Source of the DNA: a bacterium
Lineage (GTDB): Bacteria > Babelota > Babeliae > Babelales > UBA12409
Direction: 5' to 3'
DNA: 64,000 nt
Assembly: GCA_018660415.1 (NCBI GenBank)
Contig: JABJKG010000013.1
Coordinates: 193,874 to 257,873 of the forward strand
Shown: one piece after another, positions 1,531-63,091 of the stretch
Numbering within the stretch: position 1 is the first letter of the stretch
Layout of the letters: every line of letters begins with the position of its first letter
Translations under genes and position numbers: made by a program
The notes under the pieces: model-generated
What the model saw: the letters and a program-made list of their open reading frames with translations, nothing else
The model's database searches: none
What the model was told of the DNA's origin: nothing

Positions 1531-2022
1531 ATGAATAAATTATATGTAGGATTTTTTTTAATAAGTTGCACATTATCACCAATGGATTCGAGTGGTGGCG
1601 GCGGTGAACGTAACAGTGAGGGGTTTCCTGTAGTAAAAACACATTCTATTGTTTGTCCAAGGATAGGTTTGTCACTCTACTTGTTACTTAAAGCCCAGGA
1701 TCAGGAGGAGATAGTTCGCCTTCGGGAGGAAATGAGAGACCATCTTGCAGGAGTGGTTGCGAAACGAGAGTTACTCGATCAGGGTAGAATTACATCAGTA
1801 CAATACATTACATTTCTTATTTCAGGATAGGAAAAGACTACTGATGGATGCGTAAGTATGAAAGTCGTTTATAATCCAGGGTCACGATTGGGCGCTTTGG
1901 TTCATTATAATCAGCACCCAGATCCAAATTCTATGGAGCGTATTAATCCGGCAAATAAGGATACGGCGTTTTTGCAATTTGAAGAGTGGGGCGCAAGACA
2001 GCAACTGGCAGTGAGTTCATAA
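1531..2022 (+). pseudogene. Small secreted protein, paralog family A, interrupted by one in-frame TAG (1828-1830)
   Basis: ATG at 1531 gives the signal peptide MNKLYVGFFLISCTLSPM. The track ORF ends at the TAG, and the same frame stays open for 63 more codons to TAA at 2020-2022. The total of 164 codons matches paralogs of 154 and 174 aa. FLISG*EKTTDGC aligns with FYLSGERRGSC of the 2925 paralog. Confidence 0.55.
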
Positions 2023-2038
2023 TTGTTATTTAAGTAAG

Positions 2039-2503
2039 GTGGGTTTTAAGGTGAAAAAAATATTTTACATAAGTTTGTTATTGATATGTGTAAACTCATT
2101 TCCCATGAGTGTTGTTTTAGCCGGTGGTGGCTGGTTAGGTCCATACTTTAATCATGAAGAGGGATTGGGAATACGTGATACTCAAGCGTCTCAAGAGTTA
2201 TATCATTTAAGGGCAGCACGGAGTAGTGATACAAGGGCATTCTATGTTCTTATGAATAAACACTTACAAGGTTTAAAAGATGCTGCACTGTTAAGAACAG
2301 CAACACCCAAAAAAATAGCCTTGGTTCTTTGTCCTACGAATGGTCCAGGAGTCTACAGGAGAGTTGAGTTGACTTTCGGAGAGCGTAATAACCAAATAGA
2401 AGATTATAGTGCTTTTAAATGTGGCAAAAATGAAGTTGCTAATTTTGCATTTGAGCAGTATTTACAAGAATTAGAACAAGACAGAAAGGCTTCAAATGAA
2501 TAA
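2039..2503 (+). CDS. Small secreted protein, paralog family A
   Basis: Signal peptide KKIFYISLLLICVNSFPMS resembles KLIYISLFLICFNSLPMT of the 2925 ORF. The C-terminal FAFEQYLQELEQ resembles WVFRENLQYQYK and FLQFEEWGARQQ in the paralogs. An alternative GTG start lies at 2051. Confidence 0.6.
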   Translation: MGFKVKKIFYISLLLICVNSFPMSVVLAGGGWLGPYFNHEEGLGIRDTQASQELYHLRAARSSDTRAFYVLMNKHLQGLKDAALLRTATPKKIALVLCPTNGPGVYRRVELTFGERNNQIEDYSAFKCGKNEVANFAFEQYLQELEQDRKASNE

Positions 2504-2885
2504 GTTTTTATTAATTATTGTATTGGGTTTAACGAGTACCCTTGTTGGCAATCCAGGTAGGTGTAAAAGGTTAACATCGACAGATAAATTATTAGCTATG
2601 TTTACCGAGGGTGCGCCATGTTTTAAATTACACTCTACAGGACAGGTTACTGACAGTTTGGTTAAGAAGCTAATACGAGATGGAGCTTTAAAGGGAACCT
2701 TATTATTACATTCTGAGGAAAATGAACATACTACTAGCTTCTTTATGGTCAAAGGGACAAGGCTTTGTCGTCTTGATGCTATTATAACAGGTGAACCTAG
2801 TGAAATTAATCTCTTAGGGAGTTCTTATCCTCTTAAGACTCGGTTAACGTTAGTTCGTGATTTTAATCGTGGAGTATCACAGTAA
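2496..2885 (+). CDS. Small secreted hypothetical protein (possibly a distant family A member)
   Basis: Signal peptide MNKFLLIIVLGLTSTLVG. Its start overlaps the upstream stop by 8 nt. No recognisable domain. Confidence 0.5.
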   Translation: MNKFLLIIVLGLTSTLVGNPGRCKRLTSTDKLLAMFTEGAPCFKLHSTGQVTDSLVKKLIRDGALKGTLLLHSEENEHTTSFFMVKGTRLCRLDAIITGEPSEINLLGSSYPLKTRLTLVRDFNRGVSQ

Positions 2886-2924
2886 AAAGCGAGATGTCTT
2901 GTCTAATAATAATAAGGTTTTTAA

Positions 2925-3449
2925 GTGACTAAGTTGATATACATAAGTTTGTTTTTAATTTGTTTTAATTCGCTACCTATGACACACGAAAAGGAATCAA
3001 CCGAAGAGTTGAGTAAATACTTTCAGGACGGTGATAGGGTGGGGGTGTCCGATACTGACACTGCTTTAGCTGTGTATAGATTGTATGAGCTATTGAAGAG
3101 TAACAAGCGTGAACCATCATTAATGAGTAATAAGAAAGAAGTATTTAAGTTACTAGATGCGCATGTACTGGCGTTGAGACAAGAAAATTTTTTAACAAAA
3201 AGCTTTACATGTGCTAGTGGCCGGTCTGTTATTATCAATTTTTATTTGAGTGGAGAGCGACGAGGTTCATGTCATCAGGTAAAACTCTTGGGGCAATTTA
3301 CTAAACAAACAAAAGGTTGTGCTCTTCCGCCTTTAGAATATAAAGTTTCAGGAGGCACAGAAGAAAATGATCGTGTTGCACAATGGGTGTTTAGAGAAAA
3401 CCTACAATATCAATACAAATTAAGTCAAAAGCAAAGCGGTCAAAGATAG
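2925..3449 (+). CDS. Small secreted protein, paralog family A
   Basis: GTG start. The signal peptide and C-terminal region are similar to those of the 2039 and 1531 ORFs. Confidence 0.6.
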   Translation: MTKLIYISLFLICFNSLPMTHEKESTEELSKYFQDGDRVGVSDTDTALAVYRLYELLKSNKREPSLMSNKKEVFKLLDAHVLALRQENFLTKSFTCASGRSVIINFYLSGERRGSCHQVKLLGQFTKQTKGCALPPLEYKVSGGTEENDRVAQWVFRENLQYQYKLSQKQSGQR

Positions 3450-3526
3450 GTTGGTTTGCCGGAGTAAGTTTTTTGTTTTATTCTTTTTAATAGTTGGATA
3501 TATAGATTTTTAAGGAGGATGTTTTC

Positions 3527-4156
3527 ATGCAAAAAACGACAGTAGCACAACAATCATCGTCAACTCATGATGAGCATATTTTAGTAATTAAGCGTGATCT
3601 TTTCTTTTCTATTACCCCAGCATGGGATGGTTTAAAAGATGTTTCCTTTGATCAATATCTACAATTGATTTCCGATAAAAAAGAGTTTCTTCCACGGTCT
3701 GTTATGGAACAAGATTCGAGTTATAAACAAATTATTCCTTATTTGGTTTTTGAATTTGATAATAAATATTTCTTAATGCAGCGCAGTGGCACAGCATCTG
3801 AAGCGCGCTTGAAAAATAAATACTCATTGGGTATTGGTGGCCATATTCGTCAAGAGGATATGCAACAACAATCGATTTTTGACTGGGCTCGTCGTGAGTT
3901 TCATGAAGAGATTAACTATACTGGTGACTTTGAAATTGAGCCGCTTGGTGTGTTGAATGATGATTCTAATGCGGTAGGACAAGTGCATGTTGGCTTTGTT
4001 TTTCTTCTTAAAGGTAATAGTGCTGATATCTCTATAAAATCTGAACTTAAGCACGGAGCACTTAAATCGCTTGAAGAGTGCAAAGAAACTGCAGAAAATT
4101 TAGAGAGTTGGAGTCAGATTGTTTTGGAAAAACTGATCAATCAAAAGGAAGTCTAG
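3527..4156 (+). CDS. Nudix-like hydrolase (atypical Nudix box)
   Basis: LGIGGHIRQED...ARREFHEEINY contains a REUXEE-like core (REFHEE). The spacing of the full GX5EX7REUXEEXGU motif is imperfect. Confidence 0.5.
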   Translation: MQKTTVAQQSSSTHDEHILVIKRDLFFSITPAWDGLKDVSFDQYLQLISDKKEFLPRSVMEQDSSYKQIIPYLVFEFDNKYFLMQRSGTASEARLKNKYSLGIGGHIRQEDMQQQSIFDWARREFHEEINYTGDFEIEPLGVLNDDSNAVGQVHVGFVFLLKGNSADISIKSELKHGALKSLEECKETAENLESWSQIVLEKLINQKEV

Positions 4157-4247
4157 AAAATCCTAGATTTTTCTTGTAGCATTCAGTCGAGCATGGTACG
4201 TTTCACTGTGATTTATCGAAAAAATTTTATTGAGTGATTAAGGTATT

Positions 4248-61647: not shown

Positions 61648-61655
61648 GATATGGT

Positions 61656-61691
61656 GAGCCGTCTGTGTTTTAAAACAGACGGCTCTTGTTT
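61656..61691. terminator. Bidirectional intrinsic terminator between convergent genes
   Basis: 11-bp stem gagccgtctgt / acagacggctc with an 8-nt loop, then ttgttt. Confidence 0.7.
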
Positions 61692-61696
61692 AGGTC

Positions 61697-62497
61697 TTAG
61701 TGTGCTCGCACGGCTTGGGGTGGAGAGGACCGATGAACTACTGCCGGGCTTCCAGAGATGAGTGTTTGAAGATGCTGAAGTACTATTTGCATCCTGGCGA
61801 TTTCAGTACGTTGCTTGGTTAAGAGGCTTGCTTCTTTGCCATCATTCTTAGGTGCTGCTTTTTCTTTTTCTAGCTCTTTCTCGAGTTCTTTAACTTTAGC
61901 TTCAAGAGTTTCTTCTTTAATACTTGGTAGTGGATTTTCGTTCTCTTGCTGTAGTTCTTCAATTTCCTTTTTTTAAGAATTTGTAACAAGGGTTTGTAAT
62001 GTAGCTATTTCAGTGATAAGTGGTTGTAGGGATAGATCGATTGTAGAAATTTTACTTACTTGTTCCTGTAGTGCTTCCACCTCACTTGAGGAGCCGGTGA
62101 TACTGGATTTTTGTTTAGCTATCTCTGCCTTCAGGGTGGCAATCTCTTTTTCTTTTGTTTGAAGGGTTTGTGTTAAAGTAGTATTTTTTGTGGCAGCTTC
62201 AGTGAGTTTTTTATTTTCTGCCTTGAGAGAGGCAATTTCAGTATCGAGATCCTTTGATGATGATTTGACAGCTTGGTCGATTAGGCTTGTTATTTTTGCT
62301 TTAACTTTATCATTGCCAACCTTGCCATGAAGTCCCGTTATATTTCTTTTAAAGTTATTGACGGTTGTATTATTATGGGCGTTAAGTGCTTCCATAAAGA
62401 GGTTAACTATATTATTTACCTCAGAGCTGGCACCCTTTACCGAAGTTATATTACTGGCTATAAGGCAAATATAAAGAAGTTTCGTTATAGATTTCAT
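61697..62497 (-). pseudogene. Secreted coiled-coil protein, family F, with one in-frame TAA (61973-61975) followed by 91 open codons
   Basis: The ATG at 62495-62497 gives MKSITKLLYICLIASNITSVKG. The track ORF ends ...QTLVTNS-TAA. Codon-by-codon translation shows the same frame continuing KKEIEELQQENENPLPSIKEETLEAKVKELEKELEKEKAAPKNDGKE...PPQAVRAH to TAA at 61697-61699. Confidence 0.55.
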
Positions 62498-62654
62498 ATT
62501 TTTCCTTGGGTTAGATCCGTATCTTTCCCAGCGTATCAAAGTGATTTATTAAACTGCAAGATAAGAGTTAGTTATCAAGGAAGTCTTCTTTGGTTTGTAT
62601 AGAATATCTAATTGTTATTTTGTAGGACAGTAGTTCGTGATAATCAACAAAAAA

Positions 62655-62689
62655 AGAGCCTGATAATTAACTATCAGGCTCTTTTTAAT
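62655..62689 (-). terminator. Intrinsic terminator of the 62711 gene
   Basis: 11-bp stem agagcctgata / tatcaggctct with a 6-nt loop. It is flanked by an A-run and a T-run, so a U-run follows on the minus strand. Confidence 0.65.
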
Positions 62690-62710
62690 AAATTAAATAT
62701 GAAGAAATAC

Positions 62711-63091
62711 TTACTCTTTACATCTTGCTTTAGTTGCAGCTCTTACGTCAGCATCTGTACGCTTTCCGGAAAGGCCGGTGAATGCACGTCTAAAGTCTTG
62801 TAAGTTTTTAGCATTAAGTGCTCTTACAAGGTCGTTAGCTAAAGCTTCTATTTCTTGAGGAGATGAGTTTGGGCATGCTGTAGCAATATCGGTCATAGCT
62901 TTGTTTTTTACATCAGCATCATGAAGTTTTCCTGATTTGCCAGTAAAGCTACGTTTGAAATTTTGTAAATTTTTAGCGTTAAGGGCTGCTACAAAGTTAT
63001 TAGCAAAGTTATCTAAATCTGTATTAGCATTAAGGGTGGTAATGCTTCCAGTTAAAAGGCAAACATAGAGAAGTTTCGTTATAGATTACAT
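62711..63091 (-). pseudogene. Secreted protein, family F, with TAA as codon 2 (63086-63088) and 125 further codons open
   Basis: GGAGG at 63097-63101, ATG at 63089-63091, TAA, then SITKLLYVCLLTGS... This matches the neighbouring paralog's MKSITKLLYICLIAS, where the same codon is AAA. Verified codon by codon down to the track ORF 62711-62896. Confidence 0.6.

Follow-up and report, generated by a model that had tools for sequence, protein, structure and literature searches.

The 64-kb window analyzed here (the whole stretch of 64,000 nucleotides taken from contig JABJKG010000013.1 of an uncultured bacterium of the Babelota) contains four sites, s1 to s4, at which a single in-frame stop codon is followed by a long open stretch in the same frame. 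A sequence-only reading had presented all four as premature stops (TAG, TAA, TAA and TAA, respectively) in secreted genes; the coordinates, frames and identities of these codons are correct, and translation confirms that none of the four sites carries a frameshift. Based on comparisons with homologs, syntenic relatives and population variants, we propose that s1, s2 and s4 are likely to be very recent nonsense pseudogenes and that s3 is a deletion scar, reflecting ordinary gene decay rather than unusual decoding. The features concerned are the following.

1531..2022, + strand: s1, a lipoprotein-like secreted ORFan with a conceptual product of 163 amino acids (aa), divided by the TAG at 1828-1830 into a 99-aa piece and a 63-codon piece; read as a true nonsense pseudogene.
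34235..35239, + strand: s2, a beta-propeller-like gene with a signal peptide and a conceptual product of 334 aa, with TAA at codon 35 (34337-34339); read as a true nonsense pseudogene, CAA to TAA.
35268-36278 and 36360-37436, + strand: a tandem pair of intact s2 paralogs, both encoding signal peptides.
62711..63091, - strand: s4, a gene for a 126-aa secreted protein, with TAA at codon 2 (63086-63088); read as a true nonsense change, AAA to TAA, that is still segregating.
61973..62497, - strand: an intact secreted coiled-coil gene of 174 aa, the upstream "half" of s3 (61697..62497, - strand), whose TAA at 61973-61975 is read as its native stop.
61963..61972, - strand: the deletion junction, holding one remaining copy of the 10-bp microhomology AAAAAGGAAA (gene strand).
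61697..61972, - strand: the g438 remnant, 91 codons plus the stop from the 3' end of a 438-aa coiled-coil gene, with no start of its own.
62651..62686, - strand: a terminator-like hairpin just 3' of s4, between s4 and the coiled-coil operon.

The length of open frame downstream of a stop had been offered as evidence of interruption, with values of 63, 300, 91 and 125 codons. We measured runs of 63, 299, 91 and 124 codons for s1 to s4, respectively, and the 91 codons of s3 were never part of the gene that precedes them. Among 60 genes scanned, the longest post-stop open runs were 91 (s3), 91, 63 (s1), 49, 41 and 40 codons, the second run of 91 lying at an ordinary stop, 3' of the gene at 8465-9271 and antisense to an MscK-like gene. 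As comparable runs occur at ordinary stops, the 63 codons of s1 would be unconvincing without homology; open length is thus weak evidence by itself, and it is homology that rescues s1.

An exhaustive HMMER search of 1.84 billion representative proteins recovered a homolog of s1, P0009 (182 aa; E 4e-15), with which the alignment is unbroken over the stop (query 1-157 to subject 1-171). In L106, the locus encoding P0009, the column of the s1 stop holds a tyrosine codon, TAT, which is one substitution away from TAG. This locus is syntenic with the s1 region: its next gene is the ortholog of 2051-2503, and over the start of leuS and some 220 bp of intergenic sequence the two loci share 97% identity. 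Furthermore, both halves of s1 are coding-like in their common frame by codon usage, scoring 0.18 and 0.20 bits per codon, while 0.2 bits per codon is attained by only some 0.7% of the 63-codon segments drawn from non-coding frames. The protein collection records each of the two s1 fragments on 30-31 contigs; all single-substitution revertants of s1 were looked up exactly, with two start choices, and none was found in that collection. A word-indexed protein search gave no match for the read-through form, but as that index also missed 37%-identical paralogs and very short fragments, its blank was not taken as proof of absence. Decoding of the s1 TAG as pyrrolysine was considered and rejected, given that the residue of the ortholog is tyrosine and that no suppressor tRNA lies within the window.

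All four genes had been assigned to paralog families. This holds for s2, with its two tandem paralogs, and for s3 and s4, whose N-terminal domains are 44% identical; it fails for s1, of which only the leader peptide resembles neighboring genes. The leaders of s1, 2051-2503, 2925-3449 and P0009 (in the window at 1531-1590, 2051-2110 and 2925-2985) are near-identical and conform to xKK[LI]xY[IV][SG]L[FL]LI[SC]xxSxPM, whereas the mature parts are barely or undetectably similar, with only the comparison of 2051 and 2925 reaching an E-value of 2e-10. Genes of the s1 type therefore combine a conserved leader with divergent cargo. We also observed an abrupt boundary between conserved and hypervariable DNA when window positions 1121-2503 were compared with L106 positions 1-1333: the DNA is unalignable from about 1402 on, and beyond this point positional orthologs share about 31% (s1) and about 47% (2051-2503) protein identity. 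Such a boundary would fit allelic replacement within a variable island that holds small secreted proteins. The same HMMER search returned P0010 (320 aa), comprised of six tandem repeats, each resembling s1 residues 38-86 (…H[ST]IVCP[KR]xG[IL][ST]LY…), and the central part of s1 may accordingly represent a small mobile or repeatable domain. A single-nucleotide polymorphism (SNP) is present at 1527, 4 nt 5' of the s1 ATG, with C in the window and T in the ENA scaffold L002; such SNPs are few in this population.

At s2, gene callers split the frame into 34-aa and 297-aa products, the second starting at TTG 34346. The conceptual protein is 37% and 27% identical to its two tandem paralogs (tblastn E 2e-49), and its stop aligns with a glutamine (Q35) that is invariant in both of them, encoded by CAG and CAA. 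The sole relative returned by a scan of metagenome contigs, L115, is syntenic with the s2 region, with the ortholog of 33474-34079 upstream, and 81.5% identical to it in nucleotides; its frame continues through the stop site (...FGPQAVKQTKLV...), with CAA against the TAA of the window. In the protein collection s2 is present only as the 297-aa form, on 27 contigs, and exact look-up of all its single-substitution revertants found none there; the s2 site shows 100% identity across ENA, JGI and Logan contigs. A profile of the s2 family found no relative among species-representative genomes, a collection that does not include the source genome, and Pfam gave just faint hints of a WD40 propeller.

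A Shine-Dalgarno-like AAGG lies 8-9 nt before the in-frame TTG 34346 (within 34325-34348); speculatively, termination followed by re-initiation at this TTG could give a leaderless 297-aa protein. A 324-aa form of an s2 paralog was considered as a possible sign of a second strain and rejected, as it is another start call on 100%-identical DNA and adds no divergence. On the short contig L112 (1228-1914) the paralog at 35268-36278 is followed by a ribosome-recycling-factor gene rather than the third paralog, an arrangement that would be either an alternative gene order or a chimeric contig.

The s4 product begins M*SITKLLY (the asterisk marking the stop), while the adjacent paralog begins MKSITKLLY. 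The only relative of s4 from the word-indexed search, P0002 at locus L017, is 76% identical and intact, with AAA at codon 2; it is syntenic, being flanked by T2SSF and the ortholog of the 174-aa gene. Exact look-up of revertants in the protein collection found an intact 126-aa protein with lysine at position 2, P0004, the only revertant of s1, s2 or s4 found there. At all three loci, therefore, homologs are continuous on both sides of the stop (P0009 for s1; the paralogs and L115 for s2; P0002 and P0004 for s4) and the distance from stop to sense codon is a single substitution (TAT, CAA and AAA, respectively). As relatives carry sense codons at these positions, for tyrosine, glutamine and lysine, we consider s1, s2 and s4 true nonsense changes.

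The s4 protein is built from two internal repeats, each some 45 aa long (…FxxALNAKNLQxF[KR]RxFTGxSGK…DADV…), a module that recurs as the N-terminal domain of the 174-aa coiled-coil protein (62252-62497). Only one homolog was found among 5.8 billion protein clusters.

The s3 site is of a different kind. Here the homolog does not continue across the stop: o177, the 177-aa ortholog of the 174-aa gene in the relative L017, likewise ends ...LQTLVTNS-TAA, with the ATG of the next gene 12 nt later, so that the stop previously described as premature is the native one and is conserved in L017. Among loci fetched around the neighboring GDPD gene, two forms of the region could be distinguished. In the long form (L004, L005, L010, L014, L019 and L020), which has 2,348 bp more than the window, the 174-aa gene is called as 188 aa from a TTG start and ends ...LQTLVTNS-TAA, followed by AAAAAGGAAACTG and then by the ATG of the next gene. 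In L017, used as an outgroup, o177 is directly followed by the ortholog of the 181-aa gene; as this relative shares the C-terminus, the stop and the following gene, we take the s3 stop to be native and the long form to be ancestral.

Window 56629-61972 is matched at 100% by positions 1-5344 of L004 and L005, whose positions 7693-8729 correspond to window 61955-62991. Lost with the 2,348 bp are three whole genes, which encode secreted coiled-coil proteins of 181, 153 and 90 aa, and codons 1-347 of the 438-aa gene. The long form has one copy of AAAAAGGAAA 3' of the 174-aa stop and one inside the 438-aa gene, and the window keeps a single copy; similarly, when the junctions are compared, L004 has CA[A/G]TTTCCTTTTT at each end and the window has it a single time. 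Two repeat copies in the long form and one at the junction constitute the signature of a microhomology deletion. The remnant and the C-terminal end of g438 in L010 are identical (...KKEIEELQQENENPLPSIKE...SPPQAVRAH-stop), and Pfam gave coiled-coil noise for s3. Because the microhomology stands in the same codon phase in the 174-aa gene region and in the 438-aa gene, the remnant is in frame with the upstream gene by a 1-in-3 chance. Based on this comparison, s3 is best read as a normal terminator joined by a 2,348-bp deletion to the tail of a neighbor, not as a nonsense mutation. We envisage an illegitimate deletion between two AAAAAGGAAA copies, one in the ribosome-binding region after the 174-aa stop and the other inside the 438-aa gene, that would have taken out most of a secreted coiled-coil operon and placed the last 91 codons of g438 right after the normal stop of the 174-aa gene, in the same frame by chance.

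The s4 and s3 variants form a simple nested series of haplotypes in the population: L019 and L020 carry AAA and the long form, L010 and L014 carry TAA and the long form, and the window together with at least nine loci carries TAA and the deletion. L019 (AAA) and L010 (TAA) differ by one mismatch in 6,567 bp. The TAA of s4 was present in 9 of 9 loci fetched via a neighboring gene, and the intact P0004 was on 4 contigs in the collection record and on 7 in a later look-up, all 7 with AAA and two of them 191 and 247 kb long. Other population SNPs were seen at 36272, 36736, 60288 and 62630, in addition to 63088, the polymorphic base of s4. The presence of s4 in both ON (AAA) and OFF (TAA) states could be taken to favor a proposal of the earlier reading, namely that the nonsense sites act as heritable switches that toggle genes in the manner of contingency loci. 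We consider such phase variation highly improbable: the s4 change is a single A/T transversion and not a change of repeat length, the A6 tract before its ATG is invariant among the 16 loci examined, the sites in s1, s2 and s4 are three different single substitutions that share no motif or repeat, with no repeat present at the s1 or s2 site, and the nested series gives no sign of reversion.

The same stops recur base for base in assemblies from different pipelines (ENA scaffolds, k141 contigs, NODE contigs, JGI and Logan), and proteins derived from NCBI agree. That they are errors of assembly, consensus or sequencing might have been suspected on the grounds that the source is metagenome-assembled, that its population is heterogeneous at s4 and at the deletion, and that assembler-made pseudogenes with internal stops are on record (PMC11017572). 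However, identical stops are found across samples and pipelines, each of the two s4 alleles, and the long as well as the short form, is found on contigs of 190-540 kb, and the deletion junction bears a clean microhomology signature, leaving artifact with a negligible probability in our judgment. The stops are real alleles on long contigs; an earlier suggestion of a consensus built from a heterogeneous population is thus borne out with respect to the population, which is polymorphic for the s4 stop and the s3 deletion, and not with respect to the consensus.

We then considered whether the stops might be decoded. Among open reading frames (ORFs) of at least 100 aa in the window, the terminators are TAA (35), TAG (14) and TGA (8), such that TAA and TAG terminate 49 of 57 long genes. 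TAG ends atpH exactly where the OSCP profile ends (residue 179 of 180 aligns with profile position 172/172), and TAA ends BamA, CysS and TrxA at their profile ends. As TAA and TAG end conserved genes where expected, we regard global stop reassignment as excluded, in agreement with the sequence-only reading. Its list of four tRNAs, with anticodons UCU, UGA, ACG and GCU and no suppressor among them, was likewise confirmed by ARAGORN, which found no suppressor tRNA in the window or in extra flanks, and Rfam found no family beyond these four tRNAs in the window. An apparent frameshifted gene at 54801-55225 (ORFs of 70 and 71 aa) was considered and rejected, as each ORF has its own signal peptide and neither matches Pfam.

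In principle, a suppressor tRNA or context-dependent readthrough might allow full-length secreted proteins to be still made, perhaps at reduced or regulated levels. This is consistent with the open frames of coding-like codon usage after each stop, with ratios of nonsynonymous to synonymous substitution rates (dN/dS) below 1, and with a report on Salmonella (PMC9122581) in which many pseudogenes, some with in-frame stops, give low protein levels. Nevertheless, the stops are absent from the orthologs in L106, L115 and L017 and from the paralogs, and s4 is polymorphic, indicating that they are not conserved features; they involve two stop codons in three contexts, the base after the stop being G in s1 (UAG-G), A in s2 (UAA-A) and T in s4 (UAA-U); and none of them is UAG followed by cytosine, which that report found most often at Salmonella read-through stops. 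Furthermore, TAA and TAG act as ordinary terminators in the window, no decoder was recovered in the tRNA search of the window and extra flanks or in the Rfam search of the window, and at s3 such decoding would yield a chimera of two unrelated gene parts. In light of this we consider functional decoding improbable, and context-dependent readthrough as proposed earlier finds no support.

Substitution rates place the affected genes in a fast-evolving class. In comparison with L017, three adjacent genes have a dS of about 0.5, and dN/dS is 0.028 for T2SSF, 0.287 for s4, 0.28 for the intact 174-aa gene and 0.67 for the 181-aa coiled-coil gene g181; against L115, it is 0.49 for the part of s2 downstream of the stop and 0.35 for an intact neighbor. 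The family genes evolve about 10 times faster than the adjacent core gene, and neutrality is no more evident in the disrupted genes than in the intact ones beside them, as expected if inactivation is recent. The values for s2 downstream of the stop (0.49) and for s4 (0.287), a check proposed in the sequence-only reading, are below 1 and similar to those of intact neighbors, and are uninformative on whether full-length products are still made, as the events are recent. The earlier proposal of recent nonsense mutations in a fast-evolving secreted repertoire is accordingly supported for s1, s2 and s4, by the sense codons in relatives and the high dN/dS, and abandoned for s3.

About 30 of the roughly 66 genes in the window match Pfam; about 36 do not, and some 30 of these have signal-peptide-like N-termini. 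The claim that only secreted genes are affected describes a pattern that is indeed seen, with 3 nonsense cases in about 30 secreted ORFans and 0 in about 36 other genes, although it is not significant within the window (hypergeometric p ~0.09). The excess is weak: damage only to secreted genes is what relaxed constraint predicts, but it is not statistically strong.

We therefore propose the following scenario, to which we assign good probability. The source would be one haplotype of a nearly clonal, uncultured bacterium in which about half of the window genes encode lineage-specific signal-peptide proteins. Three dispensable, fast-evolving genes would have been inactivated by independent single-base substitutions (TAT/TAC to TAG in s1, CAA to TAA in s2 and AAA to TAA in s4), and the rest of each frame would still be open because the time since inactivation has been too short for further lesions. 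The interrupted genes would be non-functional, giving at most leaderless fragments such as a re-initiation product from TTG 34346 in s2, and the losses would have spread by drift or hitch-hiking under weak selection.

Several points weigh against this scenario. The loss of function of s1, s2 and s4 is deduced from sequence, and dN/dS below 1 cannot distinguish genes that have just been inactivated from genes still in use. No intact allele of s1 or s2 occurs among the approximately 27-31 contigs that carry them, and the search for suppressor tRNAs covered the window and extra flanks, so that one may be encoded elsewhere in the genome. Three nonsense events without a frameshift make up a slightly unusual spectrum. 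Finally, the contig counts derive from a few sample series and re-assemblies and are not independent allele frequencies.

These counts also bear on the role of selection. The 61-aa fragment left by the TAA allele of s4 is on 29 contigs, as against the 4 or 7 with the intact form, and each of two look-ups returned 4 long-form contigs, compared with about 20 that carry the deletion. This dominance of derived alleles, together with two successive events in a single cluster of six genes whose background is otherwise nearly invariant and dN/dS values of 0.28-0.67 in these families compared with 0.028 for the neighboring core gene, could mean that the s4 nonsense allele and the operon deletion rose as adaptive knock-outs, for instance by escape from recognition by a host, grazer or phage. 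We consider selected loss of this kind unlikely, though worth weighing: the counts are not independent, near-clonality lets any linked variant hitch-hike, the relatives L017, L106 and L115 are intact and show no parallel loss, and dN/dS below 1 gives no sign of positive selection on the proteins. A broader form, in which the nested haplotypes and the two further fixed nonsense alleles record a selection-driven stepwise dismantling of secreted or surface proteins, appears to us rather doubtful. That low-level readthrough keeps s1, s2 and s4 partly on is less likely than such dismantling.

Recent gene decay, the explanation that we favor, has precedents. In Salmonella Typhi and Paratyphi A, pseudogenes with in-frame stops (PMC9122581) similarly show one sense-to-stop substitution in an otherwise intact frame, intact orthologs in close relatives and a bias to accessory or surface-related genes; low-level translation of pseudogenes, mostly at UAG followed by C, is reported there as well. 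The present cases differ in coming from an uncultured lineage to which no genome among the species representatives is close, in affecting ORFans, in having both alleles segregating on a near-identical background at one site, and in being known from sequence alone. The s3 deletion resembles other microhomology-mediated deletions in that two 10-bp copies flank 2,348 bp ancestrally and one is left, with several genes removed and a gene tail left behind. It is particular in where the repeats sit, one copy in a ribosome-binding region and one within codons for Lys-Lys-Glu in a coiled-coil gene, and in that the remnant is in frame with the upstream stop and mimics an interrupted gene. Programmed recoding, as with selenocysteine, pyrrolysine or suppressor tRNAs, shares the in-frame stop followed by a long, open and coding-like frame, but the stops here are TAA or TAG and not TGA, are unconserved and correspond to Tyr, Gln and Lys in orthologs, with no decoder RNA in the window. 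Many purported pseudogenes in public genomes are assembly errors (Cooley and Wright 2024, PMC11017572); the resemblance to such cases lies in internal stops in an assembled genome of uncertain quality, and the difference in their reproduction by independent assemblies and the alternative alleles on long contigs.

Some further observations concern the surroundings of these loci. Contig L007 (1-3605) matches the window at 99.96% from the exact 3' end of tRNA-Ser(GCT) (60234-60321) onward, whereas to the left of this tRNA it carries wholly different genes (proton antiporter subunits and a glyoxalase), and it has a SNP inside the tRNA, at 60288. This break could be a rearrangement or island boundary, or the contig could be chimeric. 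N-termini with MKK plus a hydrophobic stretch and no Pfam match are found, for example, in the genes starting at 2051, 2496, 2925, 8465, 12756, 19597 and 24263, and in further such secreted ORFans at 33474, 42962, 44506, 54801, 55010, 57696 and 59038. The share of secreted ORFans is unusually large, and an ankyrin-repeat protein (46343-47536) and WD40-like propellers are also encoded in the window; this combination hints at a host- or partner-associated lifestyle. GroEL (38548-40191) has at most 68% identity to any of the 80 best species-representative genomes, which span many phyla, and the lineage appears to be phylogenetically isolated. A literature search on the sample and protein accessions found nothing relevant.

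We see in these loci no new mechanism of decoding or regulation, but an instance of a known event that is unusually well resolved through population variants and relatives. They also counsel caution against calling a gene interrupted on the strength of an open frame beyond its stop: the s3 scar was exposed only by comparing haplotypes. Were the stepwise dismantling true, it would amount to adaptive loss, such as escape from recognition, in a near-clonal and probably host- or partner-associated bacterium. Under the gene-decay scenario the window provides an example of successive gene-loss steps, a nonsense substitution followed by a microhomology deletion, caught within one near-clonal population and both falling in a fast-evolving secreted cluster, which may be of use in annotating this lineage and in population-level studies of gene decay.

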